Source of the DNA: a virus
Lineage: Duplodnaviria; Heunggongvirae; Uroviricota; Caudoviricetes
Virus record (IMG/VR): IMGVR_UViG_3300045591_000029
Coordinates: 1-64,000 of that record
Length of the DNA: 64,000 nucleotides
Reading direction: 5' to 3' (one strand)
Position numbers and translations under genes: made by a program. The notes beneath the pieces are model-generated. The model worked only from the letters and a program-made list of their open reading frames with translations. It was not told where the DNA came from and ran no database searches. Positions 2,962 to 63,720 of this stretch are shown piece after piece. Every line of letters begins with the position of its first letter. Positions within the stretch are counted from its first letter, which is position 1.

Positions 2962-3273
2962 TCAGTTATCGTCTCCCACAGTATTTGTGTATCCTACGAT
3001 GTTGAATTGATTGAGCCAAGAATCTAGCTCATCAATAACAGCAATATATTTCATACCTCTAGCTTTTGTTAGAAAATATCCATAGCTGATAAATCCTAAA
3101 TTTTGAGGTAGATTACGCTCTTTTGTTAACTCTAAGAACTTTTTAACCATCAGCTGAGGGTGTTGAGTAACAAAGAGTACCATCTTATCAGGATACTTAT
3201 GCGCTAAATCATTTGCGTAGTGCATTAAGCTAGTTGTCTTACCTGTACCACGACTTGCAATTACCTTAAACAT
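2962..3273 (-). CDS. small P-loop NTPase-like protein
   Basis: Walker A SRGTGKTT near N-terminus; 103 aa. Confidence 0.45.
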   Translation of the reverse strand: MFKVIASRGTGKTTSLMHYANDLAHKYPDKMVLFVTQHPQLMVKKFLELTKERNLPQNLGFISYGYFLTKARGMKYIAVIDELDSWLNQFNIVGYTNTVGDDN

Positions 3274-25404: not shown

Positions 25405-26667
25405 TTACTCTTGAGCTTCCTCAATATCAGGACTGTCAGAAGTTTCCTTAATGATACCTTCAAGGACGCGGAACTCGTAAGTCTTAGACTTGAAAGCAGT
25501 GAAAGTGCGACGGTTGACGATACGAACCACAACGCCCTCTTTAACATGAGTTTTGCCGATAGGATCGGCCAAGTCCTCGAAATACTTGTTAATGCGGTCC
25601 TGCAGGTCCTCGGCAGTAGTGAACTTGAAGTTCTCAATCACCGGGACACGATTAAAGCCATGCTTCTCACACCAAGCGGTAATCTCGTCAGGAGTCCACT
25701 CACGCTGACCGTTCTCGGAAGTGATGCGATAAATCCACATATGAGACTCACCGGGCTTGCAGCCGTAGGAGAAGATAGACTTTTTACCGAACAGCTTTTG
25801 GAAAGCCTTATCTTTTAGCTTGGAGTTATCGCCGATAGGCATGATGGTATCGTTCTCAGAGGGGCCGTAGTACCCTACTACCTCGTAGAAGACCTCCATA
25901 CCGGGATCAAGATGGGGTTTCAATGCCTCATGGTGAGACATACGGAATAGATCATTGCCGTAGTAGCCCTGAGAGTTCTCAGTTACAACACACCGGCGCG
26001 TACCGAGAACATAAGCCTGCTTCAGACGCTTCTTCATATGAAATAGACGACGGAAGAAGCCATTGGGAAGCTCAGCAAAGGTGTTCATGGAACGCTGAGA
26101 AGTGCCATGCATCTTAAGAGTCATATTCAGCTCATCACCTGGACGGAACTTATCCAGATTGTATGCAAGCTGCTCAGTGTCAGTATGCATTGCAAACTCA
26201 GGATAGGTAATACCCTCTGCCTTACGACCCTTGTAGGAAGTTTTAGGAGTGGTGCTCGGAGTCTTACGCTTAGGAATATACTTACGGCAGAACTCCTTGT
26301 CATTGATAGTGTTTACCTTGTCGCCGTCCTCCCAGTGCTGATCGCCAAAAGTCTCATAGATGCGCTCAAGAGCGATGACGATGCCAGAACTCTCGTTGCC
26401 ACGAAGCTTGATAGCCCGCACGTGAGAACTATTTTCCAAGTATCCGCCCTGAGGAGTGCCATCGAGATTTTTTCGATATAAGGTGAAAGCATCACCAAAC
26501 CATCTCTCAATTTCTCCGTCGGTAGGAAGATAAAGCACTAGCTCATTTTCTTTCATGTTGGGTCCAACAATAACCCCTTCGTTAAAACAATCTGCCAACC
26601 ACAGATTATCAGAATTAGGGTCTTTATGGAGATTATTTAGTTTTGTCACTAGAGCGTAATAAGCCAT
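25405..26667 (-). CDS. RNA ligase, Rnl2-like family (nucleotidyltransferase)
   Basis: motif I LKMHGTS (KxHG as in T4 Rnl2 KIHGT); 420 aa. Confidence 0.6.
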   Translation of the reverse strand: MAYYALVTKLNNLHKDPNSDNLWLADCFNEGVIVGPNMKENELVLYLPTDGEIERWFGDAFTLYRKNLDGTPQGGYLENSSHVRAIKLRGNESSGIVIALERIYETFGDQHWEDGDKVNTINDKEFCRKYIPKRKTPSTTPKTSYKGRKAEGITYPEFAMHTDTEQLAYNLDKFRPGDELNMTLKMHGTSQRSMNTFAELPNGFFRRLFHMKKRLKQAYVLGTRRCVVTENSQGYYGNDLFRMSHHEALKPHLDPGMEVFYEVVGYYGPSENDTIMPIGDNSKLKDKAFQKLFGKKSIFSYGCKPGESHMWIYRITSENGQREWTPDEITAWCEKHGFNRVPVIENFKFTTAEDLQDRINKYFEDLADPIGKTHVKEGVVVRIVNRRTFTAFKSKTYEFRVLEGIIKETSDSPDIEEAQE

Positions 26668-27382
26668 TTAATTCCTGTTCCTCCTCTTTACTAATTCGTT
26701 TATAGATAAAACCTTTATATGTATTTCTCTATCCATTTAATACTCGATAAATTGCTTTATCGGTCTTTGCTTCTGGACAAAATTCTCGATACGCCGAAAT
26801 TGCAGTAGGAAAAATAGCTAATAATTGACCATCTTTATCATACTTCGCAATCGGCTATCTTCTTGCTTCCAGTGCCTTTTTCTTTGCATCTTCTCGATGA
26901 CCATCTTGATAGGCTTGCTTTAATTTTTCACTTCGCTCTTCTTTTAAGGAAGGATTGTCAATAAACTTCTATTTTAGAGAGTTGCTAATCTTTTCATTTC
27001 TTTCGTGACTATAAGTCCGATTTTTAGCAGCTAAAGTCATATGCTGTCGATACTCTGGATCTTCCCATAGCAACTTAACAGACTCGCCTATCTATTTTCT
27101 AATTTCTTCCGTTTGATAATTTCCACCCGGAGAGACATTGTAACCAAAATCTGTATCTAAAAGATTTAATTCTTTGATTGTATCTATCTCTTTTTGTCGA
27201 ATTAAATCTTCATTATCAGATTCTAATATTACTTCCTTAGTTACATTTTCCCAGCCATATTTTTCTATAGCGTATCCGACGCGCTACCCTTTATATCTCC
27301 CCGACGCTCGCTGTTCAATAGAATTTCTAGTAATTCCGCAGTATTTTTTCCCATTTGGGAAAGTGTATAAATAACAGATCAT
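26633..27382 (-). CDS. GIY-YIG homing endonuclease (5 in-frame TAG)
   Basis: MICYLYTFPNGKKYCGITRNSIEQRASGRYKG*RVGYAIEKYGWENV...; five TAG, terminates at TAA; no ORF on track. Confidence 0.6.
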
Positions 27383-27465
27383 CTAAATAACCTCCTAAAT
27401 CTTTCTACTTATATTAAAAGTCATTAGGAGGTTATTTAGAAGTTTTGTCCAATCGCTACTTCATT

Positions 27466-29074: not shown

Positions 29075-29827
29075 TTATTCAATTAAATTATTAAGAGTAA
29101 TATTGCCAATTTGAGTATATGGAATACGTAATAACGGAATATTGTTTTTCTTACAATATTCATCTTTTAATTTATCTCTCTGCTAAATAGTTTCTAATGA
29201 ATCTGACTAAGACCATGTTGCATCAGGTCCTAAAAAATGCTATCTTCCATCAAATTCAATTAATTTGTAAAGTTTATCTTCTTTAAAGATAGCAAAATCG
29301 AATCTTAATAGACCATTTTTTTCTGTTCTTAAATCATTAAAGGTATATTGCTAAATAAAGTTTATATTATTTTTTCTTAATAAGTCGGCAATAACTCTTT
29401 CGCCTCTGGATTTAACGCATCCACAAGATTGAGTTCCTCCACTTTTTAGATTGTTATTACTTACTTCAATAAAATTTCCACAGTCACATTGACATAAAGC
29501 CCATCTTATCTATTTATCTCGACTGGCCTCTTTTCGATATCCCAAGTCTTTTATAAAAGTTAAATGGCCAAATTTAGTTCCGGGGTCAATAATTCCTCTA
29601 TTAAAATTTTCTTGCGATAATTGTTCATTTCTTAAACATCCGCAAGATAAAGACCGACCAGAGTATAAATCTCTATATTCCTTATATCTCTTTGTGCCAC
29701 AATCGCACTAACATAAAGCCATTTTTGGAGGTTTTTTAGCCTTACTATTAGGATTTACTGTATTAACCTATAAAATAGTCCATCTTCCGAATTTAGCCCC
29801 TACCTTAATAAGATCAGATTTTTTCAT
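29075..29827 (-). CDS. putative homing endonuclease of FGRWT...CDCGN family (about 7 in-frame TAG)
   Basis: MKKSDLIKVGAKFGRWTIL*VNT...W ALCQCDCGNFIEV...LIEFDGR*HFLGPDATWS*...; EFDGR*HF aligns with EFDGEQHF in paralog 20614. Confidence 0.5.
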
Positions 29828-29895
29828 CATAATCACTCTCCTTAAAATTGGAGAGACGGACATTAATGTCCGTCTCTCCAAAAGTATATAAAATT

Positions 29896-35489: not shown

Positions 35490-35558
35490 TGGAGCGAACG
35501 GTGAGATTCGAACTCACGCCCTTACGGGTCACACGGCTTTGCAGGCCGGGATCTTAAA
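35488..35558 (-). tRNA. atypical class II tRNA-like gene, anticodon loop CUGCAAA (nominal GCA) with long variable arm
   Basis: acceptor gcgaacg/cgttcgc, T arm gtgag-ttcgaat-ctcac, D arm and AC stem irregular. Confidence 0.35.
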
Positions 35559-35581
35559 CCACTTGACTACGTTCGCATAAG

Positions 35582-35597
35582 AGCGGCAAAAGCCGCT
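35582..35597. terminator. short hairpin gagcggc-aaaa-gccgctt downstream of lipoprotein gene
   Basis: 7-bp stem directly after stop codon. Confidence 0.3.
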
Positions 35598-35848
35598 TAA
35601 TCGGTCATCAAGACCACATTGGAGATATGAGTAAGATAGGTTACGCCATCAATTTTAATTTGAATGGTATCACCATCATCAAAGTCTTTCCAAGACTGGA
35701 CTTCACCTTCGATAACTGTTCCATCCGGAATTACGATAACCGCTCGATTGAATGTATAGTTGGTATCGAGGATTTGACGATTGCCGCATCCCGCCAAACA
35801 AAGTGTTAAACTAATTGCCGCGGCAAAGGCCACAACTCTTTTTTTCAT
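35597..35848 (-). CDS. small lipoprotein
   Basis: signal peptide with lipobox LAGC (MKKRVVAFAAAISLTLCLAGCGN). Confidence 0.5.
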   Translation of the reverse strand: MKKRVVAFAAAISLTLCLAGCGNRQILDTNYTFNRAVIVIPDGTVIEGEVQSWKDFDDGDTIQIKIDGVTYLTHISNVVLMTD

Positions 35849-35874
35849 TTTTTTTGTTACCTTTCAATGAATTA

Positions 35875-35957
35875 TGGTACCCAAGGTGGGATTCGAACCC
35901 ACATGCCATAGGCGGAAGTTTTTGAAACTTCTGTGTCTACCATTCCACCACTCGGGC
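35875..35957 (-). tRNA. tRNA-Leu(CAA)
   Basis: hand fold: acceptor gcccgag/cttgggt with G.U pairs, D arm gtggaatggtagacac, AC loop UUCAAAA, long variable arm, T loop ttcgaat, CCA encoded. Confidence 0.8.
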
Positions 35958-35959
35958 GA

Positions 35960-36265
35960 TTAAATAAAAGCCCAGAGAATATCAAAAGCACGTTTGTGTT
36001 CATCATTCTCCAAAGGATTATTGGCAGGAATATCTGCTAATTTTCCGTAGCAGTCCATCAGAATAGCGCTATCTTCGAGATTACCATAGAAACAATCTTT
36101 AACATTGTAGGTTGCTGTGTGCGGACCGCAGATGGTTTTCATAAAACTTTTCTCTGTCTTGAGCCAAATACTTTTAGCAGATTGAACCACATAAAGTTCG
36201 TCCTCAGTTAAATGCAAAACTTTAAGTTCCATACCTTCAACAACCTTTCTGTAATTATTATACAA
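35960..36265 (-). CDS. hypothetical protein
   Basis: 101 aa. Confidence 0.4.
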   Translation of the reverse strand: MYNNYRKVVEGMELKVLHLTEDELYVVQSAKSIWLKTEKSFMKTICGPHTATYNVKDCFYGNLEDSAILMDCYGKLADIPANNPLENDEHKRAFDILWAFI

Positions 36266-36288
36266 AAAATTTTTACGAAAATCAAAAA

Positions 36289-36380
36289 TGGCGGAGGGCG
36301 AGAGACTCGAACTCTCACGCCGATGTTCTCGGTTACTGGCGGTTTTCAGGACCGCTCCCTTGCCAATTAGGGTTAGCCCT
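36289..36380 (-). tRNA. tRNA-Ser(UGA), class II (anticodon loop CCUGAAA, C33 instead of U33)
   Basis: acceptor ggagggc/gccctcc, G73, long variable arm, T arm gagag-ttcgagt-ctctc. Confidence 0.65.
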
Positions 36381-36419
36381 CCAAATAGAGCAGTTTTATA
36401 TCTTACTCAGGATAGCGAC

Positions 36420-36752
36420 TTACAGGCTGTCAAGCAGATCGTTCTTGGCAGTGATAACCTCGTCCAGCTCATAGATGGCGTCATCTTTATAATCGCACAT
36501 CTTGTCGAGATATGCCTCGGCATTCACGTGAGCCCAATAGGCCTCATCAACCTTTTGATTGGCACGGGCAACACGCTTCTTGGCAATCTTCTCTGCACAC
36601 CGCAGAGCAGCAAGCTGCTTACCCTTCTCCAGAGAGAACTCGTCGCCATCATGACAGACTGCAATACCTCGGACAGTACGGCCGGCATAGGTGGAAACCG
36701 CAATCACGCGAGTGCCATTAGTATAGAACTTGTACTTCTCAATCGGATACAT
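36420..36752 (-). CDS. hypothetical protein
   Basis: 110 aa. Confidence 0.45.
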   Translation of the reverse strand: MYPIEKYKFYTNGTRVIAVSTYAGRTVRGIAVCHDGDEFSLEKGKQLAALRCAEKIAKKRVARANQKVDEAYWAHVNAEAYLDKMCDYKDDAIYELDEVITAKNDLLDSL

Positions 36753-36945
36753 AACTTGTAACTCCTTTTCTCATTTACTATATATATTATATTATAATTT
36801 TTAAGATTTTTCAAATCGGCCTCTTGATGGAGAGTCATTGCTTCTTCTTTTATCTTATATACATATAATACAATATATTTTGAGAAAATGCAAAAAAAAA
36901 AAAAAAAAATAAGGGTTAAAGCTCAAAGAACTTTAACCCTTATAA

Positions 36946-37407
36946 TTAAGTCAAATCAGTAAATGCTCCCCAGGAGAGATCGGTAGAAGGAGAACCCCAC
37001 GTTCCATCACCCTTAAGATACTTCTCAGATTCCCCTGCCGCAGGAGCTGGAACTAATCCTCGTGTACCAGCTTTTGCGGATGTAGCACCTACCATTGTAT
37101 CTACGTTATTCTGAACCACTGTCCAGTCACTTGCTTTATAGCTAGAACTATAATCACTAACGCAGATAATCATGTCACCTGCTTCCATTGTTCCAATAGA
37201 TGGAATTTCAAAAGCAGTATTGGCTTTATATGTCCAACCTTGTTTATAATTGGTTAGAGAGGTAATTCCGGCAGCACTAGAGACGACACCTTTAAAGACT
37301 AGAGAAGAAGCAACCGCGGTTTGCAATGCAGTGACCGCGGCTCTTACTTCTTCATCTTTAAGGGAGTAAATGGTACTGCCGAGTTTAATTTTGGAAATAT
37401 CCGCCAT
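36946..37407 (-). CDS. fibre-like structural protein (tail/head fibre; YLKGDGTW motif)
   Basis: MADISKIKLGSTIYSLKDEEVRAAV... and ...EKYLKGDGTWGSP similar to phage fibre collar motif. Confidence 0.5.
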   Translation of the reverse strand: MADISKIKLGSTIYSLKDEEVRAAVTALQTAVASSLVFKGVVSSAAGITSLTNYKQGWTYKANTAFEIPSIGTMEAGDMIICVSDYSSSYKASDWTVVQNNVDTMVGATSAKAGTRGLVPAPAAGESEKYLKGDGTWGSPSTDLSWGAFTDLT

Positions 37408-37460
37408 TTACTCACCATCCTTTATTTTCATAAACGAGCATTTAGCTCGCTAGTGCCAAA

Positions 37461-38678
37461 TTACTCTACGGTAACTTCCTTGGCGGCAACTGTGATGTCA
37501 CCAACATTGAGCTCAACCTCATCAGCAGTAAACTTGGTATCAGCAGCGTTAACAGTGGCCTTGTCATAAGTAACACCAGAAACAACCTGAACCTCAGTGC
37601 CAGTAAAGGCAGCGTTGACAGTGTTCTTGTCACCAGTAAAGGTAGCAGCGAACTTATCACCAGTAAACACAGGAGCAGTAGCGGTAGCACTGGTAATACC
37701 AGTAACAACGGCAGTACCCTCAGCAGCCAGCTCAGGAAGCGTACCAGCATCAAATGTACCCTCGACATAGGAAGCCTTAGCACCCTGCTTGAAGGTAGGT
37801 AGATCGTTAGCGGTGAAGGAGAAGCTCAAAGTTTCGCTTGTCTCATCAACATTGGCACTCCAAGCAGCCTTAGAACCAGCGGTAAAGGTATCATCACCAT
37901 TAGCAGTGAAAGTATCAGCAGCCTTAGTGGGAAGAGTGCCCACAGAAGTGACCTTCTTAATGCTATCGGTAGCAGGAGTTACAGTCACAGTAGGAGCAGA
38001 CACGGAACCAGAAATCTGAACACCGTTCTCAGCGTCTTTAGCGATAGCAACCTTACCAGTAGCAGTTACGTCAGCTGCAATACTACCAGCAGGAGTGTAT
38101 GCGCTCTTAGCAAGAGTAGCAGCAGTGGCAGTCTGATTCAGAGCAACAGCAATAGAACCAGTAACATTACCAGTAGCCTTCACACCGCTGATGGTCTGGC
38201 CTGCAACAGTACCAGTAGCAGAGTCCTTCTTAGCAAGCTTGCCAAGACCCATATCGGTAGCAAGAGTATCAAGATTGATATTAGCAGAAAGATTCTGAGT
38301 ACCAATAGTGACAGTCTTTAGAGCATAGATGCTCTCATCGCCGAGCTCATGCCAAGTAGCAGGCTCGCCACCATACACATATTCTTTAACGCCAATGATG
38401 ATTACGTCACCTGCGGCAGGATCAGTAATATCATCAAAGGAGGTGACTACGCCACGGAAGTGCATAGAGCCGGAAATACCAGCAATAGTTGCCTGAACCT
38501 GAGCACCAGTTACGAGACCCTGCTCATCTGCGCCAACGCCAGCAGCGACGTCTTTCTTAGCAGCATTACCAAGAGTAGCAAGAAGCTCACGAGCCTCAGC
38601 GTCCTTCAGATAATAAGTCTTCTCACCAATAGTGAGTTTAGAAATCACAGGAACATTCTTAGGATCAAAAATAGGCAT
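37461..38678 (-). CDS. fibre-like structural protein with Thr/Ala-rich repeats; N-terminus paralogous to 36946 gene
   Basis: PVISKLTIGEKTYYLKDAEARELLATL vs ISKIKLGSTIYSLKDEEVRAAVTAL; 405 aa. Confidence 0.5.
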   Translation of the reverse strand: MPIFDPKNVPVISKLTIGEKTYYLKDAEARELLATLGNAAKKDVAAGVGADEQGLVTGAQVQATIAGISGSMHFRGVVTSFDDITDPAAGDVIIIGVKEYVYGGEPATWHELGDESIYALKTVTIGTQNLSANINLDTLATDMGLGKLAKKDSATGTVAGQTISGVKATGNVTGSIAVALNQTATAATLAKSAYTPAGSIAADVTATGKVAIAKDAENGVQISGSVSAPTVTVTPATDSIKKVTSVGTLPTKAADTFTANGDDTFTAGSKAAWSANVDETSETLSFSFTANDLPTFKQGAKASYVEGTFDAGTLPELAAEGTAVVTGITSATATAPVFTGDKFAATFTGDKNTVNAAFTGTEVQVVSGVTYDKATVNAADTKFTADEVELNVGDITVAAKEVTVE

Positions 38679-38701
38679 AATTAAATTTCCTCCTAAATAG
38701 A

Positions 38702-39214
38702 TTATTTGAAGACAACGGTTTCGTCTTCTAAATTAACTGAAGCACTAACCTTAGTGTTCAGTTCATCTGTAATCGCTTTTTGCGTCATTGCACCATCCAC
38801 ATTCTCTCCAGTAGTAGAGTAAAGCTTCATAATACCTGCGGTTTCCGCTGACGCGGTCGGAAGCGAACCCGGCCCAATTAAAACAAACTCAACGCCATTG
38901 TAATAATACAAGTCGTTGGTGTTATTGGCATCAATATAAATTTTATTTTCATTAGGAGTGATTTCCTAAATACCATCAGCATCCTTGAAAATCTTTCCGC
39001 CAATGAAATAAACGCGTTGGAAGATAGTATTCTCATACTCAAGACTTCCATAAGTTGATACACCATCACCAACAATTACGCAAAGACCTTGTCTAGCAGT
39101 ATCTACTAAACAGATTTCTCCTTTTTTGGGAATAAAACTATCTTTTACCTTCTCGTAATTGTAATCATTGTCGCGGCGTAACTTAAAAACAACTTCAAAT
39201 GTTTTAATAGCCAT
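38702..39214 (-). CDS. structural-region protein with one in-frame TAG; joins track ORFs 38966..39214 and 38702..38911 (same frame, separated only by TAG at about 38964-38968)
   Basis: frames 264 nt apart; downstream track ORF has only a TTG pseudo-start. Confidence 0.5.
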
Positions 39215-39229
39215 ATATTTTAACCTCCT

Positions 39230-39435
39230 ATTGTTGCAGGAGCGCCGCCAGCATCTAAAATGATTGTATCAGTATTCTCAATTGCTGGAGAAGTTATCTA
39301 TACTCTGGTACTGTCATCAGTATCTAAAAAAATCAAACGATTATCCTCGTCTGTTGTAAAGATCAACTAACCTTCTTTAATTGGAATATTATTGAGATTG
39401 GCAAAAGAACCTTTAAGAACTACTAATTCAGCCAT
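39230..39435 (-). CDS. small protein with 2 in-frame TAG
   Basis: MAELVVLKGSFANLNNIPIKEG*LIFTTDEDNRLIFLDTDDSTRV*ITSPAIENTDTIILDAGGAPATIGG. Confidence 0.4.
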
Positions 39436-39567
39436 TCTTACAAATCCCTCCTCTCACATAGATATAAAAACTAATGCAAATCACTTTGCCACATTTGGCC
39501 TGAAAAATTCTAAAGCCACTTTGCGTTTGCACCGAGCGCGGTCCACTCCTGTTCATATACAAAAAGA

Positions 39568-39592
39568 AACCCCTGTCACGAATGACAGGGGT
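39568..39592 (-). terminator. rho-independent terminator aacccctgtca-cgaa-tgacaggggtt followed by T-run on minus strand (downstream of tRNA-Met)
   Basis: 10-bp GC-rich stem then tcttttt on transcribed strand. Confidence 0.6.
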
Positions 39593-39667
39593 TAGGCAGA
39601 ACACTTGCAGGTGTTAAGCTCTCTCGGTTTTCTCATATATATGATAAACATTGCTGCAACAATGAAC

Positions 39668-39743
39668 TGGTGCCAGCTCTGAGAGTTGAACTCAGTCCTC
39701 TCGCCGTATGAAGGCGGCATCTTAACCATTTGACCTAGCTGGC
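39668..39743 (-). tRNA. tRNA-Met(CAU) (or Ile2/initiator type)
   Basis: acceptor gccagct/agctggc, AC stem tcgcc/ggcgg, loop plus gtatgaa giving CAU, T loop agttgaa, CCA encoded. Confidence 0.75.
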
Positions 39744-39768
39744 ATATAGCCTCTTGCGAGGGCTATTC

Positions 39769-40905
39769 TTAAAAATTATCGAACTTGTTTACCATAGAGA
39801 TGCTTACTTTTGTTAGAGTACAAGACTCAACAGTCGTGTTTTTCATCCACTGTCTACGAGCAATTTCTGCATCATCGTCAGACATTGACTCCTCAAAAGC
39901 GTCATAGGCTAAAGTCAACTTAATCTTCTGCGGATTGATGGTTAAAGCGCCATCAGCAACCGTGACATTAGAGGGAGAGAAAGTAATCCAATAACGGACT
40001 TTATCCTTCTCAAAAGAAATGTTATACTCATCCTTAGAGTAGAGATCAATCTTCTTGTAATAAGCTGTAGTGACCCACCCATTAGACAATCTAACGGTAA
40101 CATCATAAGAGCTATTACGCTCGTAATTGATGTTCAAATCCATGAGGGTCTCTTCCAGAGGATAACCCTGCTTTAGATCGAAAGCAATTGCGCGCAGACA
40201 ATCAAAAGTAATGTCAGCTACTTGAGACAGCTTAACAACCTTTTCAATGTCCTCTTCCCAACCAGTACCGAGCTTATCAGCCATATAAGCACGAACTTCG
40301 TCAGGAGAGGGGCAGGTAATCTCAAAATGATAATGGAAACGGCCAGGACGGTTAATAAGAAATTCATTCAACTGACAAGGATCGTTACAGGTAATGACAA
40401 ACAGCTTCTTACCATTATCCATACCATCGAACAGACTAAGCATCTCAACCTGCGGATCGTCCTTCTCTGTCTTGGCGAAAGTCTTTTCAAACTCGTCAAA
40501 AATAATCGTTACCTCTTGCTGAATAGAGGCAAGAAAATTGCTGATGCCGGGAATAGCGGTGTCAACGATAATGACTGGCATATCGGCCTTAATAGACTCT
40601 TCCGCAATCATGCGAGCAAGTAGAGATTTACCGATACCTTTCTTACCAGAAAGAATGACACCAAAGTTACGCTCGCTGACAGCAAAAGACTTGAGAATCT
40701 TTTCAGCGCGACGAGCATGATTGCCGTAAATAGTGCCCTCATTGACAGCGAGGTCATTGTGCTTTGTCAGCCAAAATCCCATCTGCGGATGGAAACCAAC
40801 AGTATAGGTTGCAACTGGCAATTCATTATAGGTCTTTACATCTTCGCCATAGACCTGATAACGAGAACCTGCATTTACTATGTTCATTCCTTTACTTCCT
40901 TTCAA
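39769..40905 (-). CDS. AAA+ family ATPase
   Basis: Walker A GKKGIGKS, Walker B IIFDEFE; 378 aa. Confidence 0.65.
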   Translation of the reverse strand: MKGSKGMNIVNAGSRYQVYGEDVKTYNELPVATYTVGFHPQMGFWLTKHNDLAVNEGTIYGNHARRAEKILKSFAVSERNFGVILSGKKGIGKSLLARMIAEESIKADMPVIIVDTAIPGISNFLASIQQEVTIIFDEFEKTFAKTEKDDPQVEMLSLFDGMDNGKKLFVITCNDPCQLNEFLINRPGRFHYHFEITCPSPDEVRAYMADKLGTGWEEDIEKVVKLSQVADITFDCLRAIAFDLKQGYPLEETLMDLNINYERNSSYDVTVRLSNGWVTTAYYKKIDLYSKDEYNISFEKDKVRYWITFSPSNVTVADGALTINPQKIKLTLAYDAFEESMSDDDAEIARRQWMKNTTVESCTLTKVSISMVNKFDNF

Positions 40906-40912
40906 TATGTAT

Positions 40913-48770: not shown

Positions 48771-48947
48771 CCATAACTCGCACTTCTTCTTGCGAAGCTA
48801 TTCAGGGGACGCGGCGTCACGCACCATTACCGTTTTCGTTTCGTTATATAAGGGGAAAGAAAAGGGTAATCAAACCAAACCTAAACTGGTTTTTAACTAT
48901 AATCACTAATAAATATAACCGAGAAGAACCAATTGAAAACTTCTCTT

Positions 48948-49023
48948 TGGTGGAACCTGCGGGACTTGAACCCGCTACCTCCTGCTTGCAAGGCAGGCGC
49001 TCTCCCAGATGAGCTAAGGCCCC
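48948..49023 (-). tRNA. tRNA-Ala(UGC)
   Basis: AC stem cctgc/gcagg loop plus ttgcaag giving UGC; acceptor pairs with two G.U. Confidence 0.8.
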
Positions 49024-49145
49024 ATAAGATATATAGAGAAAAGTGAAGAGTGGTAGTACCATCACTTATCAGTACCTCGTACATTAAACCACTAAGGTCG
49101 AGTTCTAGTTAACGACAACGCTCGAAAAATGTCAGGAGGTGTTGC

Positions 49146-49236
49146 TGGCAGCCCCGCTGGGGTTCGAACCCAGACTTACTCCTTCAGAGGGATACGGTTT
49201 TAGAGACCGCCGTGCTAACCATTACACCACGGGGCA
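49146..49236 (-). tRNA. amber suppressor tRNA, anticodon CUA (loop CUCUAAA), class II scaffold (about 20-nt variable arm), G73, unpaired U1.U72
   Basis: plus strand ...gatacggt-tttagag-accgc...: AC stem gcggt/accgt (G.U closing), rc loop CTCTAAA; acceptor tgccccg/cggggct, D arm gtgtaatggttagcac, T arm ctggg-ttcgaac-cccag, CCA encoded. Confidence 0.7.
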
Positions 49237-49254
49237 ATATTCAGCAAGACACAG

Positions 49255-49330
49255 GTTTTTGCACTGGACTCGAACCAGTTATCATTTTCGTGGCAAGAAA
49301 AGAATTATCCCATTAAAAAACTTGCTGTAC
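49255..49330 (-). tRNA. probable tRNA-Gly(GCC) with weak acceptor pairing
   Basis: T arm actgg-actcgaa-ccagt, AC stem ttttc/gaaaa loop plus gtggcaa giving GCC. Confidence 0.4.
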
Positions 49331-49335
49331 TGTGT

Positions 49336-49375
49336 CTTTCTTACTTTCTATAAATATTATATCATAATATTTATT
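49336..49375 (-). promoter_or_regulatory. same promoter-like motif upstream of tRNA-Gly/suppressor tRNA cluster
   Basis: ctttcttactttctataaatattatatcataatatttat. Confidence 0.45.
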
Positions 49376-49587
49376 ATTTTTCAAATAAAGAGAATACTAA
49401 AGTCTAGGCGGGTGGTCATATTTCAGCCACACGCTTACGCTACTCCGACTTCGCAAAATTCCACTTCCAGAATTTCAGGCGTAGGTTTTTTTACGCTAAT
49501 TCAAGGGATTTCCACCGCAACTTACCTCACTCTACCTCGCCTGCCTAGACGGCCGATAAGACCTGAACCGTTTCAATATTCTCTTAT

Positions 49588-49664
49588 TGGCGATCCCGAC
49601 GGGACTTGAACCCGTGACCTCTAGCGTGACAGGCTAGCGTTCTACTCTTCTGAACTACGAGACC
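49588..49664 (-). tRNA. tRNA-Asp(GUC)
   Basis: AC stem ctagc/gctag loop plus gtgacag giving GUC, T arm acggg-acttgaa-cccgt. Confidence 0.8.
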
Positions 49665-49857
49665 AAATACTTGGGGAGAGTCATTCCCCTAACGGTAAGT
49701 GATACCGATTAGTTTTATTTAAGTAACAAAGCTAATAAAAGACTATCCAGATCCATGGACAAGGAAAGGTTTCTGAACTCGCACCCACAATCGGCAACCT
49801 CCGTAAGGTAAGCGGTTGACACCAGCTTGTTTTGACTAAGAGTAAGCCAAACTCTTT

Positions 49858-49944
49858 TGGTGCGGCTAGTGAGATTTGAACTCACACGACCTTTCGGCCA
49901 CAAGCACCTCAAGCTTGCTTGTCTACCGATTCCAACATAGCCGC
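49858..49944 (-). tRNA. tRNA-Leu(GAG), class II
   Basis: acceptor gcggcta/tagccgc exact, AC stem caagc/gcttg loop plus acctcaa giving GAG. Confidence 0.75.
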
Positions 49945-50083
49945 ATATTCACGATTGGTTACTTTGCTTTCTTATATTTAGACAGGCGTTGTCCACTAAG
50001 CCACATATCTTCGCTGCTTGGCATTGCCGCGCATTGGATGCCGGTGGTAGTTTACCAATCAAAATCCATGTTAACGCCTCATT

Positions 50084-50165
50084 GGTACGGGATAAGGGAC
50101 TCGAACCCTTACGCCATAGACACTAGATCCTAAATCTAGCGCGTCTACCATTCCGCCAATCCCGC
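50084..50165 (-). tRNA. tRNA-Leu(UAG), class II
   Basis: AC stem ctaga/tctag loop plus tcctaaa giving UAG, T arm aaggg-actcgaa-ccctt. Confidence 0.75.
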
Positions 50166-50418
50166 ATATTTTGGAAGCTTCCCCATAGGAGGTTTACCAA
50201 CCCAAGCAGCTCTAGTGTTTTTCTTTTCTGCCGCCAAAACTACAAAAACCGGCACAAGTTCATTTTGCTTTACCTTTCATTTTGAAAGACTTTAAGGAGT
50301 TCTTGCTTACCTCGTTTTCAAAGTCAGAAACTTGTAGCTATTTCCTGCCACTAAAGCGATATAATAATTTCATCTGTTAGCTACTCAGATACATAATTAT
50401 TATAACCTTTAGATTTTG

Positions 50419-50959
50419 TGGCTGTCCCGGAGGGATTCGAACCCTCGACCCCACGATTGCTTACACATCAGCTTACCAGTTCTTTACTACTTCCTCCAAT
50501 TCATAGTCTTTGGCCCAAGTGATACCTCTAACTTGACCATTTTTTGTAGGAAGAATACGAAGTCTTTTGTCAGCTCCACACTCTCCTACTGGGATTAGAT
50601 AACACTTTCCATTAAAAGTAGTCACGAAATAATCAATTTCTTCGCTAGTATATTGATGATGAACAATTTTTCCATCTTTTCTATGACAACTTCTACCAGA
50701 AAAGACAAAAGAAGCACCATCATCTTCGGTTCGTGATGTTTTTGCTTGAATTTTAATGAATTTTCCATTGACATCAACAACAAAATCATAACGCTCACAA
50801 TCTCCATAGGGAGTTAAAACATTATAACCAAGTTTAGCAAATGCCAACATCGTTTCAAGTTCTGTAATGTTACCTTTTTGCTTACTATTCATTTTATTTT
50901 CATAAAAACGATAAGGTCAGGTAAACAGTCGCGTGCTCTGCCAGCTGAGCTACAGGACA
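50419..50959 (-). tRNA. split tRNA-Asn(GUU) (Asp-GUC not fully excluded): 3' exon 50419..50458, insertion/intron about 50459..50923, 5' exon about 50924..50959
   Basis: 5' exon tgtcctg-ta-gctcagctggcagagc-a-cgcga-ctgtt; 3' exon aa-tcgtg-gggtc-gaggg-ttcgaat-ccctc-cgggaca-g-cca; acceptor and AC stems pair only across the 465-nt insertion. Confidence 0.55.
50473..50892 (-). CDS. PD-(D/E)xK nuclease (paralog of 41044..41454) encoded inside the tRNA-Asn insertion
   Basis: TELETMLAFAKLGYNVLTP....RYDFVVDVNGKFIKIQAKT; C-terminal LIPVGECG...LPTKNGQVRGI conserved between both copies. Confidence 0.55.
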   Translation of the reverse strand: MNSKQKGNITELETMLAFAKLGYNVLTPYGDCERYDFVVDVNGKFIKIQAKTSRTEDDGASFVFSGRSCHRKDGKIVHHQYTSEEIDYFVTTFNGKCYLIPVGECGADKRLRILPTKNGQVRGITWAKDYELEEVVKNW

Positions 50960-51140
50960 ATATCTACGAGTCTCTCGTTTCAAGCTGCCAACATTCAAGA
51001 CTCAGTATATTTGTTTTGCTCTTCAGCAAAAGGGGTTTTCTTCTCTCGGTTAAGTCTTTAATAGACCTTACAGCACCTTCCGTTAACCTCACCACGCATA
51101 CCTTATTTTTAAGAGTTAAGTGGGTGGCAACCATTTCTCT

Positions 51141-51175
51141 CAGTTTCTATAAATATTATACAATATTTTTTATTA
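51141..51175 (-). promoter_or_regulatory. same promoter-like motif upstream of split tRNA-Asn and downstream tRNAs
   Basis: cagtttctataaatattatacaatattttttatt. Confidence 0.45.
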
Positions 51176-51658
51176 GAAATCAAATTTCCTTTTTGGCTTC
51201 TTCTTTTCTGGAATCGGATATTCATTAACCTCGATTCCATGCTTCTTAAACCAATCAAACAACGCCCATCTTTCAGAGCAAGGATTAGTTGGTGCTTCAT
51301 GCACCAGCAGAACAATCTCTGGTTCATCACCATTGGTCACAACTCTTTGCGCTATACTTTCGAAGCGCCGCATGATATCATCAAAATCGAGAGCATCTAA
51401 TTGCTCTCTATAATGCTGCATAAAGCGACATTTAGAGTTGTCATGGTCGCAATTCCCGCAGTAACCTTCACCCTCTTGATGGTCTTTTGGAACGAAAGGC
51501 TCAGCCCGCAAGCCATTAAGCACTCCTCGCTTATCCAAATAGACATCACCTTGATGTTTGTTATAAAACCACTTTGGGTCCCACATCGCGGTAGAAAGGG
51601 CTACTGTATTCGGTTTCATAAACCGAACTGCGTAGAAATAAGAGATATAGAACTTCAC
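51173..51658 (-). CDS. hypothetical protein
   Basis: 161 aa. Confidence 0.5.
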   Translation of the reverse strand: MKFYISYFYAVRFMKPNTVALSTAMWDPKWFYNKHQGDVYLDKRGVLNGLRAEPFVPKDHQEGEGYCGNCDHDNSKCRFMQHYREQLDALDFDDIMRRFESIAQRVVTNGDEPEIVLLVHEAPTNPCSERWALFDWFKKHGIEVNEYPIPEKKKPKRKFDF

Positions 51659-51876
51659 AGGTCATCTCCTGCGATTTCAGAAACCAAATCTACCCAAAGT
51701 TCATAAGGAATAATAGGTACTACGCCATCATTCTTAGCATCTTCGATAACCTCCTCGATTTCAAAGATACCACCGCAGCAACCACAAATGATTTCATTCT
51801 TATATGCAATACCAGCAGTATAATGACCGCCGTCTACATCCCAGAACTTAACCTGAGTAGGTGTCTCAAAGAACAT
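51655..51876 (-). CDS. hypothetical Cys-rich small protein
   Basis: CGCCGG motif; 73 aa. Confidence 0.4.
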   Translation of the reverse strand: MFFETPTQVKFWDVDGGHYTAGIAYKNEIICGCCGGIFEIEEVIEDAKNDGVVPIIPYELWVDLVSEIAGDDL

Positions 51877-51944
51877 ATCATTTACTTCCTTTCCTTAACT
51901 TTCTATAAATATTATAACAAAAATATTATAATATTTCAAATAAG

Positions 51945-52030
51945 GTTTGAAGCTGGCATCAAGGGTACGAGTCGAACGCATTACCACGAGATTTGGAGTC
52001 ACGCCTCAGTCCCTCTGAGATTAAGGTTCC
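51945..52030 (-). ncRNA. tRNA-like structured element (acceptor atcaagg/ccttgat, CCA) with irregular arms
   Basis: hand fold gives good acceptor but poor T and anticodon arms. Confidence 0.25.
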
Positions 52031-52062
52031 CTTGATATATTCTTCCCTCCATAGGTGTCAGT

Positions 52063-52499
52063 CTAAGAATGACAATTAGGGCATAAAAATCTTAAATTTT
52101 CAAGCCTATGGTCATCATTTACTCCATTGATATGGTCTAATTGCAAACTAATGGGTTTACCTAACCATGAATCAATACCACAACAAGCGCATTTATATTC
52201 TAAATATCCTTCTCTTACTAGTCTGGACTTTAGACGACTAATATTATGATAAGTAGAATGTTCTACTAAAATTTCTTCAAGTGTATATTTTGCATTTGCC
52301 GCAGTTAATTTCTTTGTCCCAAAGTGGGAAATATCGCAAGATAATTCTTGAATACGCTCTTTGAGGATATCTGTAGAAGAACCACCTTTAGTAGTTAATC
52401 CCAGCATCCTTAAACAATCTGAATAACTATTCGCCTATGAAACAATGGTACGAAATTCTTCATCAGTAACTTGATAAATTTTACTTCTTCTAGCCATAT
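52063..52499 (-). CDS. HNH homing endonuclease (1 in-frame TAG); track ORF 52063..52407 is the C-terminal part
   Basis: MARRSKIYQVTDEEFRTIVS*ANSYSDCLRMLGLTT...LQLDHINGVNDDHRLENLRFLCPNCHS. Confidence 0.6.
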
Positions 52500-52569
52500 A
52501 TAATGACCTCCTTTATTTGTTCATTATATATGAAAATTATAGAAATTACCTTTACCAAAACTGACCAAC

Positions 52570-52640
52570 ATTTTACCGAATCTTGGATTTGAACCAAGAC
52601 TATTGCAAAGCAATTTTCTACCTATTGAAATAATTCGGTA
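52570..52640 (-). ncRNA. pseudo-tRNA: exact acceptor (accgaat/attcggt) and T arm cttgg-atttgaa-ccaag but anticodon arm collapsed to a 3-nt loop hairpin attgc-ttt-gcaat
   Basis: seen directly. Confidence 0.3.
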
Positions 52641-52892
52641 TATAACCCTCGAAACAGCCTTCTCGAGGGGCGCTCAATCTTAAATGCCGGAGCTATACAA
52701 ACGGCGAGCAGTCTTTCTTCATTCCCCGTAAAGAAAGTCTGTAAAGATAGCTTAGTCAACTTTCGCTATCGGCGCCATGCCTCACCTTTATGCCTAGGTC
52801 ATAAAAGGATTGCGCTATTGTTGATTGGCATTATGGAGCAAGATACCGGGTTCGAACCGGCCCTTTCAGTTTGTGGTGTCTCATATAAGATT

Positions 52893-53643
52893 TGAACTTA
52901 TATCTTTGACCACATTTCATCAGAATATTTTTTAATATCAGATTTACGATAAGGTAAATCGTAGGCTTTACACCATTTTTTAATGGTGTTATCAGAAACA
53001 GAAAAATTTTTTCCTATACTCACAAAAGTTTCTGCCCTAATCATATCTTTTAAGACTTCTCTACTCGGTCTTTCACACTTTTGTTGTCTAATATGGTCAC
53101 AGGCAGAACATCTAATTGCTCCCTTAGAAATTTCTTTTCCACAATCAACGCAATAATGATGCTATTTTGTTATATCTTTTACCTTGCGTAATGGATACTA
53201 TTCACCTTCAATAGTATGATAATCACCACGATTAAGATAATAAACCATGCTTAAGTCTAAACCATATTTTTCACTAATTTGTGAAAAAGATAGCTCAGAT
53301 TTTTTAATATCTTGAATAATACTATCCAAGACCTCTGGTGCATATCTCTTAAAAACTTGGTTCTATGAACTACCGCCAGATGTAATATTATATCCATTGG
53401 GAGTAATTGAGTTATACTTTTGAATATAGAATTTTTCTCTTGTATCTAAAAGATACTCTGGACATTCTTCGATAATGGAAAAAGCAAAATTATCTTTTCC
53501 TTCTCGTTGAATCGCCTACCCAATTAGCGAATTACTACGGCAATGCTCTGCAAATCGCTTTTCGATATGAAGGCTCTAACCCACATATACCTTACCATCA
53601 GTCAGATTTTCAATTTTATAAATACCAATAGACAAGTCTTTCA
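52893..53643 (-). CDS. GIY-YIG homing endonuclease, I-TevI-like with C-terminal zinc finger/HTH (5 in-frame TAG)
   Basis: MKDLSIGIYKIENLTDGKVYVG*SLHIEKRFAEHCRSNSLIG*AIQREGKDNFAFSIIEECPEYLLDTREKFYIQKYNSITPNGYNITSGGSS*... Confidence 0.6.
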
Positions 53644-53760
53644 TCTCCTCTACTATATTTACAATTTTGAACCGACTCTTTAATGAAATGTACCCAAAAT
53701 TTTTCTTAAACTAATGAAACGAAGACTGACGTGCTAGCCGCTAACACTAATCCTGCATAA

Positions 53761-53836
53761 TGGTGCGCCAGGCGGGACTTGAACCCACGACTCTCTGCTT
53801 AAAAGGCAGATACTCTACCGACTGAGTTACTGGCGC
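53761..53836 (-). tRNA. tRNA-Lys(UUU)
   Basis: acceptor gcgccag/ctggcgc exact, AC stem tctgc/gcaga loop plus ttaaaag giving UUU. Confidence 0.85.
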
Positions 53837-61467: not shown

Positions 61468-61492
61468 TGAGAACTTCGAAGAAGTTCTCATG
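61468..61492. promoter_or_regulatory. operator-like inverted repeat tgagaacttc-gaa-gaagttctca in divergent intergenic region
   Basis: 10-bp perfect IR between minus-strand and plus-strand gene blocks. Confidence 0.4.
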
Positions 61493-61800
61493 CGGGTTGG
61501 CAAAAAATTTGGTGATAAAATTGCCAGGCCGCAGGCAAAGAAAAGATTCGGATGGACAGCCAAAAATTTAACAGAATTTTTTAACATTTTTCTTAGTGCG
61601 ATAGAAGAGAAATAACGAGGTTAGAAGAGATAGAAAGAGGTAAAAATTTTAGGTAATTTTTCATACTATGATGGCGACTATGTTGCATTTATTCTTAATA
61701 TATGTTATTATTATTTCATAAAAAAGAATAAAATTTAGGACAAACGCAGTTAATCTCCCTATATTGCTTTTCAAGTATTAGTGGAAGGAGGGTTTTAATA

Positions 61801-61956
61801 GTGGATAATAAGAAAGAGTATTACACTATTTCTACTCGATTAAAGAGAGAACAAAAAGAGTAGTTAGAGCAATTTGCAAAAGAGCAAGACTTAACTATGT
61901 CCCAAGTCGTGCGCAAAGCGATTGAGATGTATATAAATTCTACTACTGAAGAATAA
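61801..61956 (+). CDS. ribbon-helix-helix (CopG-like) small DNA-binding protein, GTG start, 1 in-frame TAG
   Basis: VDNKKEYYTISTRLKREQKE*LEQFAKEQDLTMSQVVRKAIEMYINSTTEE; RBS ggaaggaggg. Confidence 0.45.
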
Positions 61957-62148: not shown

Positions 62149-62760
62149 ATGGCAGTAAGTAATCAGAATATTGTAAGGGTTGGAACCAGAGACGCCTTTG
62201 ATAAGTCTCATACATATTGCTTAATGCATATAGATAGCTTGCAAGCCGCAATGTGTAATCTAAAAGGTGAAACTTTAAAACTCTGGTTATATTGCAACAA
62301 GAATCAAGATGGATATCAGTTTGAGTTAAGCCAGAAGGCATTACAAGAATGGGGTTTGAAAAAAGATGCGTATTAGACAGCTAAAAAGAAGCTAATGGAG
62401 CTTGGCTATCTAGTCCCCGCAAGTGAGGATAGTAATGTCTTAATTTTTTATGAAACTTTGTCTGAAAAACCGACTAATCCGACCGAATCTGTTTTTCAGA
62501 TTCAATCTGAAAAACCGACAAAGTAGTCTGAAAAACAGACAATAACTGGTGAAGAGATCGGGTCTGAAAAACCGACTTCATCTGAAATTCAGACAAAAAT
62601 AGAGACTAGTGAATCTGAAAAACCGACAAAATGCTTAGGCAAAATGTCTGAAAAACCGACAATGTTGTCTGGATTTCCGACAAGTTAGTCTGAAAAAGCA
62701 TAGAGAAATAATACAATAGTACATGATAGTACATTAAAGGATAGTACAAATATGATTTTT
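62149..62760 (+). CDS. putative replication initiator/organizer with iteron array inside its coding sequence (several in-frame TAG; 3' end uncertain)
   Basis: track ORF 62149..62376 continues after TAG as ...TAKKKLMELGYLVPASEDSNVLIFYETLSEKPTNPTES...SEKPT... repeats. Confidence 0.35.
62455..62700. repeat. iteron-like direct repeats: at least seven copies of TCTGAAAAACCGAC(A/T) spaced about 30-45 bp
   Basis: seen directly: gtctgaaaaaccgactaatc, caatctgaaaaaccgacaaag, tctgaaaaacagacaat, gggtctgaaaaaccgacttc, gaatctgaaaaaccgacaaaatg, atgtctgaaaaaccgacaatg, tctgaaaaagcatag. Confidence 0.6.
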
Positions 62761-63232
62761 GGCGAGAGAGAAGAGGAACGGAACGATTCTTATCCCACTA
62801 TTTCACGTGATGTAGTGGAGTAGATATTTGTGAATCCGGAGTATTTAGAGGGAGGTCTTATTAAGAATGGAGACAAGATTTTTAGATTAGAAAATTGAGA
62901 TGGAAAAGTGCGAGGAAGGTTACAGAAATTTCGATCTAAAACCTCTTACAGAAGAGGAAGAGCATTTTATAAAGAATATGATAGACGTGTTATTAGTGGA
63001 GATTGGTCCTAAGCCTGTAGTAGAGGGAGGAGAGCTTCTAGATTTTAGAAGCAAGATTCCGAGAGGATAGAGAAGAAGGCTTTAGCTCTATGGAGATAAA
63101 GGGGAAAGAGAGTCATAAGAATAGCGGAGTGTGTGCTAAAATAGGAAGGTGGCGTGCCGATCGGGTCTAGCTAGACCTCTCTCAATTCCCTGTCACCGAG
63201 ATCGCTACCCTGGCTCCCGCAATTTATATATA

Positions 63233-63263
63233 AAAAAAGAGAGGGTATTAACCCTCTCTTATT
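63233..63263. terminator. bidirectional hairpin aaaaaagagagggt-atta-accctctctt-att between converging plus and minus blocks
   Basis: 10-bp stem flanked by A-run and T-rich tail. Confidence 0.55.
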
Positions 63264-63264
63264 C

Positions 63265-63720
63265 TTATAGACCGATCTCCCGCAGGAAATCAGCGATCTT
63301 CTCATTGTCACTCTTATCCTTGCTCTTAGGAACGGCATCAAAGAGATTATCAACCTTGTCCAGGAGAGCCTGGAGGAGCTCATCTGGTTCCTTACCGACC
63401 ATAGTCGCGGTAGTCTCCGCGTTCAGCTTAATGATCTGGAAATAATCCTTGATATTTTCAGCAGTCCAATCGGGATACTTTTCTGCCATAGTAAGAGTAT
63501 ACAGGGCAGCCGCGTCAGTGCAATCAAGATGTCCCTTAGAAACAGCGGTCTCAAACTGATCCTTCATGTGCTCAATCAGTTCAGTGCGGGCATCCACGAT
63601 TGCCTTCTTCTTTTGATCCTCCTGCTGGACCGCGTTAAGAGTCTTAGAGAACATCTTTGCGATGTCATCAATAGACAGTCCATTCTTCTGGGCATCTCGA
63701 ATCATAGCTTCAAAATCCAT
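63265..63720 (-). CDS. hypothetical protein
   Basis: 151 aa with promoter motif upstream. Confidence 0.45.
   Translation of the reverse strand: MDFEAMIRDAQKNGLSIDDIAKMFSKTLNAVQQEDQKKKAIVDARTELIEHMKDQFETAVSKGHLDCTDAAALYTLTMAEKYPDWTAENIKDYFQIIKLNAETTATMVGKEPDELLQALLDKVDNLFDAVPKSKDKSDNEKIADFLREIGL

Follow-up and report, generated by a model that had tools for sequence, protein, structure and literature searches.

Do the near-identical short repeats clustered inside one gene of a tailed-phage genome serve as a replication origin, or do they simply encode a repetitive stretch of protein? This question is raised by a 64,000-nt sequence of the Caudoviricetes (IMG/VR record IMGVR_UViG_3300045591_000029, positions 1 to 64,000; hereafter, the window), in which the repeats, or iterons, lie within a gene for a putative replication initiator. 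The initial annotation of the window, made from the sequence alone, had proposed a candidate origin inside an initiator gene, in the style of lambda O, and this proposal is supported by conservation at the DNA level, by the occurrence of the iterons in non-coding DNA, and by matches of the protein family to known initiators. On the basis of sequence comparisons, we propose, with a probability of about 0.72, that the segment 62461–62760 acts as an iteron-type (theta) origin and that the gene in which it lies encodes its initiator.

Repeat array and its conservation as DNA

The array was first described as at least seven near-identical repeats; it comprises nine dyads of the form TCKG-N5-CMGA, which start at positions 62461, 62488 (with an inverted A/T tract), 62506, 62527, 62563, 62581, 62614, 62647, and 62668. 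This pattern occurs 11 times in the window, where 2.6 ± 1.6 matches would be expected, and nine of the 11 are confined to 220 bp. The 14-mer TCTGAAAAACCGAC is present in five exact copies on the plus strand (62461, 62506, 62563, 62614, and 62647), accompanied by inexact copies at 62527 (one mismatch) and 62581 (three mismatches) and by an inverted copy at 62487–62500 (two mismatches), and no further copy with two or fewer mismatches was found anywhere in the 64 kb. The start-to-start distances of the dyads are 27, 18, 21, 36, 18, 33, 33, and 21 bp; the spacing is 18–36 bp rather than the 30–45 bp originally given, and every distance is a multiple of 3. The iterons occupy codons 105–178 of the 249 codons of the initiator gene, and an AT-rich tract occupies codons 181–204. 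The AT richness reported for the locus was confirmed, the AT content being 78% at 62700–62760, directly 3′ of the last iteron; ATAGTACA occurs three times in this stretch (62716, 62726, and 62741). Among the related loci (denoted by L numbers), the dyad positions are kept in L009, and in most of the loci examined closely, non-coding arrays included, the last iteron is succeeded by the motif (T/C)AGAG(A/T)AATA together with AT-rich DNA; a motif of the TAGAG(A/T)AATA type was not seen after the array in L067. Three generic features of an iteron-type theta origin are found at this locus: at least three repeated putative binding sites clustered in a short stretch, an AT-rich neighbor, and a cis-encoded putative initiator whose specificity co-varies with the iterons.

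Nine copies in a single frame, spaced by multiples of 3 within a linker predicted to be disordered, could also be a protein-level tandem repeat of the SEKPT type with no function as DNA. The peptide SEKPT, which the initial annotation had assigned to the repeats in general, is encoded by the main copy only; the variants encode SEKQT, SEIQT, and SGFPT, and the inverted copy encodes the unrelated SVFQI, yet all of them keep the dyad. In the relatives, the dyad shifts coherently (to TTCGCAAAATGCGAA or TCGGAAAACCAGA), and the encoded peptide shifts along with it. For example, the dyads are TCTGAAAAACCGAAA and TTTCGCAAAAAGCGAAA in L002 and TTTCGCAAAATGCGAAA in L003, and one copy in L004 has swapped half-sites (TCGGAAAACCAGA). 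The iteron cores are 95.3% identical to those of the relatives and the spacers 87.1%, and the relatives differ by whole iteron units lost or gained. Furthermore, synonymous sites in and beside the repeats are more conserved than those in the folded domain. In the comparison with L011, the part encoding the N-terminal winged-helix (WH) domain is 74% identical (55% at third codon positions), whereas the terminal iteron and AT-rich segment are 96% identical (96% at third positions); the corresponding values are 74% (53%) and 87% (91%) for L006, and 86% (72%) and 99% (100%) for L009.

The same iterons are also found outside ORFs (open reading frames). In the short-form loci (L013–L016, L049, L053, L056, L058–L060, L065, L067, L070–L072, and L096), the WH ORF ends at ~102–125 amino acids, and 3–14 iterons lie downstream of it. 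Stops in all three frames were present 3′ of the WH stop codon in all eight of the loci read (L013–L016, L053, L058, L060, and L067), and the iteron spacing in the short forms is ~32–33 bp (about three helical turns), which is not a multiple of 3. One of these loci, L053, shares the iteron TTCTGAAAAACCGAA with the window lineage. Decay of the nucleotide sequence with retention of the peptide, which had been named at the outset as the pattern contrary to an origin, was looked for in the relatives, and the opposite was found. These three independent lines of evidence show that the DNA itself is conserved, because the dyad is kept while the peptide changes, synonymous sites are conserved, and the iterons are non-coding in relatives; in other words, the repeats are DNA-level elements and not a protein repeat, an explanation that we regard as barely credible. 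The AT-rich segment is likewise under constraint at the DNA level. Long GC-rich hairpins were also observed 3′ of the AT-rich segment in the short-form loci L013, L014, L016, L053, and L058 (CGTTTCTCTAACTCG...CGAGTTAGAGAAACG in L053), which could serve as terminators or as signals for priming or loading.

The repeats co-vary with the N-terminal domain of the protein, and iteron variants track the divergence of the WH domain among relatives. L007, from a 138-kb relative, has the same island between minus-strand genes, consisting of genes for a ribbon-helix-helix (RHH) protein, a DUF5659 protein, and the initiator. The L007 initiator (P0096) has an unrelated N-terminal domain, and its last 35 amino acids are the same as those of the window protein; at the equivalent place in its gene are seven or eight dyads of another sequence, TTCCGR-N4-YCGGAA. 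In L004, a second initiator-like gene (6984–7670) directly follows the first, with 29% identity (E = 5e−18). Because this paralog, which has a similar C-terminus, carries its own repeats (four copies of GGGGATTACTGGGGATACC) and its own AT-rich stretch, L004 appears to contain tandem initiator–origin cassettes. Such modularity is known for initiators: the DNA-binding domain and its iterons are exchanged jointly, and the replicon lineage keeps its recruitment domain.

Putative initiator and the alternatives to an origin

The repeats had initially been placed in an ORF following 62149..62376, the use of TAG as a sense codon having gone unrecognized; both ORFs belong to one gene, 62149–62898, which runs through five in-frame TAG codons (codons 76, 126, 180, 185, and 225). 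A single gene is indicated because a public protein (P0001), identical to the window initiator except for one residue (A16T) and with TAG translated as Gln, spans the whole region, and because the TAG codons align with CAG or Gln. In the structure predicted with AlphaFold from a 23-sequence alignment, a WH domain (amino acids 1–105; predicted local distance difference test, pLDDT, 70–91) is followed by a linker predicted to be disordered (amino acids 108–212; pLDDT <50), which is encoded by the iterons and the AT-rich DNA, and then by a small C-terminal domain. By analogy with lambda O and the C-terminal domain of pSK41 Rep, this last domain is presumed to recruit a partner. The top structural matches of the WH domain were DnaB, RctB, RepA_N, and DnaD; in the Foldseek search against the PDB, nothing was significant (best E = 0.23), PDB sequence searches with two family profiles gave no match, and NCBIfam gave no meaningful match.

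The initial annotation had suggested comparing the N-terminal domain with models of initiators or DnaD-like WH proteins, and the expected matches were obtained for members of the family, the match of the window protein to Pfam HTH_36 (PF13730) being below threshold (12.9 bits, cutoff 25, E = 0.097). The window protein matched the PHROG “O-like” families weakly (678 at 1.1e−3 and 345 at 8.6e−3). A profile search showed that the family contains 1,775 clusters (at 50% identity), many of them of 105–125 amino acids, and has no Pfam family of its own. When 30 distant members were scanned against PHROG and Pfam, half of them (15/30) matched PHROG 270 “replication initiation protein” (best 1.5e−11), 10 matched PHROG 428, nine matched PHROG 678 “O-like” (best O-like match 1.5e−9), seven matched PHROG 186 “DnaD-like helicase loader,” and seven matched Pfam HTH_36 (best 8.7e−10). 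Every functionally annotated PHROG family matched by the members is a replication initiator or loader, and one other is unannotated. The protein is therefore one of a large family with a remote relationship to phage replication initiators, and its kinship with HTH_36 is remote and transitive, since the protein itself is below threshold and the family members match. The window protein did not match RepA_N (PF06970) at E ≤1, nor did any of the 30 members at E ≤0.01; neither the window protein nor the 30 members matched the replisome-organizer Pfam families, and in the window protein Pfam detected neither Phage_rep_O nor the DnaD C-terminal domain. By sequence, the window protein thus lies outside the RepA_N, Phage_rep_O, and replisome-organizer families, as a probable remote relative of the HTH_36-type initiators.

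The WH fold is common to many transcription factors, and MarR, Fur, CodY, and GntR also appeared in the structural match lists. The array might accordingly be a regulatory or decoy cluster, used for autoregulation by the WH or RHH protein or for titrating the initiators of related co-infecting phages or satellites; the swapping of the N-terminal domain and the iterons between close relatives is what such a conflict predicts, and a small opposite-strand island in a large phage resembles the cassettes of small temperate phages. However, operators normally lie at promoters and not in 5–14 copies inside or 3′ of a gene together with a conserved AT-rich segment, the annotated PHROG matches are all to replication initiators or loaders, and a lineage-conserved C-terminal domain suits the recruitment of a partner better than repression. 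We therefore consider a purely regulatory or decoy array unlikely, and in part it would be a sub-function of the proposed origin, since autoregulation and incompatibility are also functions of the iterons of real origins.

In type Ib and type II partition systems, iterated centromeres are bound by RHH proteins, and the iterated sites of the window adjoin an RHH gene. The array could therefore also be a centromere-like partition site of an extrachromosomal prophage, bound by the WH protein in the manner of TubR or by the RHH protein in the manner of ParR or omega; TubR was among the Foldseek matches, at rank 5 and without significance (E = 0.75). This explanation is improbable, more so than a regulatory array: a ParA, ParM, or TubZ NTPase gene adjoining the cassette is lacking both from the island of the window and from the genes listed for L002–L009, the conserved AT-rich element beside the array is a feature of origins, and the family members match replication-initiator PHROGs and not partition families. 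Furthermore, the small relatives, contigs of ~22 kb (L002, L003, and L005), have integrase and terminase genes; because integrases are present, these relatives seem to integrate rather than to partition. In the 10–12.7 kb read per contig, the RHH/DUF5659/WH cassette is their sole replication-like module.

In the same three contigs, the cassette lies 0.9–1.8 kb upstream of the genes for the small and large terminase subunits (TerS and TerL). Since pac sites can be located within the genes of DNA-binding proteins, a pac-like packaging site bound by the WH protein was also considered. Against this, the three contigs have their own Terminase_2 small subunit, no terminase was found among the genes called within ~10 kb on either side in the ~140-kb relatives or beside the cassette in the window, and the homology of the WH protein is to initiators and not to TerS. 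A packaging site is therefore very improbable, somewhat less so only than a mere protein repeat.

Having weighed these alternatives, we infer that at the proposed iteron-type origin the initiator binds the iterons, the DNA is unwound, a partner is recruited, and replication starts. The N-terminal WH domain, probably as a dimer, would bind each of the nine dyads, whose half-sites TCKG and CMGA converge on an A/T tract; such A-tract centers would favor bending. A complex of many protein copies might then bend the DNA and help to open the conserved AT-rich segment 62693–62760, and a helicase, a primase, or a loader may be recruited by the C-terminal domain, a part conserved throughout the lineage of ~140-kb phages. 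Translation of the origin DNA would yield no more than a disordered linker tolerant of indels. Autoregulation of the cassette promoter is the probable role of the upstream RHH protein, and the DUF5659-like protein would be a frequent accessory. The coordinates of these elements are given in Table 1.

Table 1. Coordinates of the proposed origin, the genes of its cassette, and associated features in the window
Feature	Position	Strand	Remark
Promoter-like site, AGGACA-17-TATATT	61737..61765	+	Consensus scan; upstream of three-gene plus-strand cassette
RHH gene, 51 amino acids, GTG start, in-frame TAG at codon 21	61801..61956	+	
DUF5659-like gene, 61 amino acids, two in-frame TAG codons	61977..62162	+	14-nt overlap with start of initiator gene
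Putative initiator gene, 249 codons plus TGA stop	62149..62898	+	Continuous only with TAG read as Gln
Iteron array, nine 13-bp dyads TCKG-N5-CMGA, mostly GTCTGAAAAACCGAC	62461..62680	.	
Half-iteron TCTGAAAAAGCA (from 62689), motif TAGAGAAATAATACAATA, and AT-rich stretch	62689..62760	.	Candidate DNA-unwinding element
Small C-terminal domain, amino acids 213–249, YPTISRDVVEQIFVNPEYLEGGLIKNGDKIFRLEN	62785..62895	+	pLDDT ~80
Bidirectional terminator-like hairpin	63237..63260	.	10-bp stem on both strands, T run on minus strand
tRNA gene, anticodon CUA	49146..49236	-	ARAGORN; Rfam tRNA 54.5 bits

Several points weigh against an origin at this site. That replication starts here is deduced from sequence. 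GC skew, which the initial annotation had recommended as a check, lends no support: it is positive only at ~61.5–63.5 kb, matching the plus-strand genes, and in L009, which has minus-strand genes for 10 kb on either side, it is around zero or negative again past the island. The skew is thus uninformative, because the change of sign is local and follows the coding strand. A phage of ~145 kb with its own topoisomerase, seen here over 64 kb, may use other or additional origins. From codon 76 on, the initiator can be translated only by amber suppression, an awkward requirement in a very early gene. Finally, a homolog of the initiator is found on a plasmid, pRGF00006 (L001, HG796773.1, 5.2 kb), and the same plasmid also carries a gene that looks like the Rep_3 type (from reading its sequence, no search having been made), so it is no proof that the module replicates autonomously. 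This plasmid was the only plasmid match; at ~430–930 on its minus strand, it has an unannotated, TAG-interrupted WH homolog, missed by the standard-code annotation of the record, with three GTGTA-N11-TACAC dyads and AT-rich DNA, and it also carries a serine recombinase.

Comparison with known origins embedded in initiator genes

In lambda and the Stx phages, gene O has iterons and an AT-rich tract in its middle, and the O protein gains residues where there are more iterons; its N-terminal domain binds the iterons, and its C-terminal part recruits the helicase loader (PMC7466680). The window likewise has its iterons and AT-rich tract midway along the initiator gene, the iteron copy number differs among its relatives with a corresponding change in linker length, and family members match the PHROG “replication initiation O-like” families. 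It differs from lambda in lacking a Phage_rep_O match, in the sequence and length of the iterons (13–15 bp versus ~19 bp), in having no recognizable P-like gene adjoining the initiator gene in the window, and in its apparently Firmicute-type host (as opposed to Escherichia coli). In phage SPP1, oriL lies in gene 38 and consists of repeated AB boxes, bound by G38P, and an AT-rich DNA-unwinding element (PMC5737612). The window and SPP1 share the embedding of the origin in a gene, an initiator without an AAA+ domain, and, as far as can be judged for the window, a Firmicute host. However, the window protein matches neither pfam09524, the G38P family (PMC5737612), nor the related Pfam family of replisome-organizer N-terminal domains, and no helicase-loader or helicase genes equivalent to G39P or G40P were found in the window island.

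The closest parallel is a chimera among the staphylococcal plasmids. In pSK41 Rep, the Rep boxes occupy the center of the gene, the origin-encoded linker can be dispensed with, and the C-terminal domain is lineage specific; in pPR9, the N-terminal domain and the origin have been replaced by a phage-like pfam13730 (HTH_36) module, with the C-terminal domain retained (PMC5703833). The relationship of pPR9 to pSK41 thus resembles that of L007 to the window, where the N-terminal domain and the proposed origin are swapped as a unit and the C-terminal domain is kept. The window protein also has the three-part organization of pSK41 Rep, with an N-terminal winged helix, an origin-encoded linker, and a lineage-specific C-terminal domain. 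In addition, RepA_N iterons are inverted repeats converging on a poly-A tract (PMC7145576), and the semi-palindromic iterons of the window, central in the gene, converge on an A tract. In contrast to pSK41 and pPR9, the window protein has no RepA_N match and only a sub-threshold HTH_36 match, and its gene has nine sites instead of four. [quoted passage not shown] The N-terminal domain of DnaD does not itself bind DNA (PMC7145576), whereas the WH domain of the window protein is paired with specific iterons and is not accompanied by a detectable DnaD C-terminal domain.

The architecture has already been established by experiment in lambda and the Stx phages, SPP1, and staphylococcal plasmids, and nothing in the window overturns current understanding. 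What it offers is a concrete candidate origin and initiator for uncultivated, ~140-kb TAG-recoded gut phages, and a candidate initiator role for a large unannotated protein family. Within this family, a short WH gene may be followed by the putative origin as non-coding DNA, or the putative origin may be translated as a linker; because both states are found side by side, the family would be a good natural series for the embedding of origins in initiator genes. The coexistence of coding and non-coding origin forms in one family and the presence of TAG inside a conserved origin motif are curiosities that the window adds to this architecture. The cassette could also serve as a replicon or specificity module in the engineering of phages or vectors for gut Firmicutes.

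TAG recoding and the surroundings of the cassette

TAG is most likely a sense codon for Gln in many genes of the window. When TAG is read as sense, the summed length of ORFs of at least 100 amino acids rises from 63 kb to 88 kb, and in-frame TAG codons align with CAG or conserved Gln in relatives; for example, VVE-TAG-IF in the window corresponds to CAG in L011 and L020, and SN-TAG-N in relatives corresponds to CAG in the window. A tRNA with the anticodon CUA is encoded in the window, and such a tRNA would be needed to read the initiator gene through its five in-frame TAG codons. ARAGORN labeled it “Pyl” only because of the anticodon; it is 88–91 nt long, with an unusually long variable region (ATCCCTCTGAAGGAGTAAG). 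Under the standard host code, translation of the initiator ends at codon 76; the conserved motif at the end of the origin itself includes a TAG codon (GCA-TAG-AGA-AAT), and four further TAG codons interrupt the gene. Because of these codons, a full-length initiator, in which the WH domain is fused through its own origin to the recruitment domain, would be made only once tRNA-CUA is active. Recoding might then be functionally tied to the origin, amber suppression acting as a timer or licence for the initiation of replication, a conjecture that we regard as doubtful. If it were true, amber suppression would have allowed an origin downstream of a gene to evolve into an origin translated as a linker.

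The density of in-frame TAG codons is patchy. The mean for the window is 5.8 per 1,000 codons, TAG-rich genes have 20–43 per 1,000 (e.g., 3273–4187, 26633–27424, 29075–29863, 52898–53758, and 62149–63118), and in-frame TAG is absent from many genes, among them the gyrase-like genes and the PhoH-like gene. That the putative replication cassette falls among the TAG-rich genes is surprising, since PMC10607447 cites the view that recoding chiefly marks late genes. No link could be made between the window and the published TAG-recoded phAss-1 group (PMC10607447).

Nearly all genes of this phage-like genome are on the minus strand, and the genes at 61.8–63.1 kb form the sole coherent plus-strand block in the window, in agreement with the initial description of the locus as the only divergent region. 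The few other plus-strand ORFs come from a crude selection of ORFs, and most of them overlap longer minus-strand ORFs. The promoter-like site may act as the promoter of the cassette; the sequence around it, TTTAGGACAAACGC...TATATTGC, is kept in L007, L009, L018, and L026. The RHH gene was correctly recognized from the outset: its product matches Pfam RHH_9 (2.4e−5) and RHH_1 (5e−4) and PHROG 876 “transcriptional repressor” (1.9e−8), and an RHH gene is found at the equivalent position in L002, L003, L005, L006, and L007. The RHH protein is presumed to be the regulator of the cassette. A nearby inverted repeat, thought at first to be an operator, is present at 61469–61489 (GAGAACTTC-GAA-GAAGTTCTC), but its role as an operator did not hold up; it is not counted as part of the element because it is missing in the close relatives L009 and L018. 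The DNA upstream of the RHH gene (61540–61660 in the window) is a cassette that differs between relatives: the window has two 20-bp direct repeats (TAGAAGAGAAATAACGAGGT) at 61602–61641, in whose place L007 (7445–7529), L009, and L018 have four 22-bp repeats (TGTCCnnnnnTTTCTAnT), and L026 has neither. These repeats may be sites for the regulator.

The product of the DUF5659-like gene matches Pfam DUF5659 at E = 5.7e−4, under the curated cutoff. Of 51 related loci, 22, comprising both long and short forms, have a DUF5659-like ORF immediately 5′ of the WH gene, which suggests that the DUF5659 domain has a role in replication cassettes and links this domain to them. At the other end of the cassette, an 83-amino-acid ORF (62867–63118, plus strand) with three in-frame TAG codons overlaps the 3′ end of the initiator gene; its position is kept in L008 and L009, and searches of Pfam and PHROG gave no match for it. 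The terminator-like hairpin closes the island against a converging minus-strand gene (63265–63720). An Rfam scan of the island found no RNA family.

Other products of the window include an RNA ligase, a PhoH-like protein, subunit A of gyrase/topoisomerase IV, and a lysin that carries an SLH domain. Against catalogued phages, the gyrase-A-like protein reaches no more than 36% identity; a DNA search of INPHARED with 25 kb of the window gave no match, nor did tblastn with the initiator, so INPHARED contains no close relative. Four TAG codons lie in frame in the lysin gene (11343–12674, minus strand), whose product combines Phage_lysozyme2, Amidase_2, and SLH domains; judging by the SLH domain, the host may be of the Firmicute type and bear an S-layer. 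ARAGORN found 31 tRNA genes in the window, at 35490–53836 on the minus strand, and called four-base anticodons for two of them (40913–40986, “taaa”; 47955–48029, “tgtt”). A full-length tmRNA gene (45841–46181, minus strand), absent from the ARAGORN output, lies within this tRNA cluster and matches Rfam RF00023 with 76 bits (gathering threshold 47; E = 9.5e−28).

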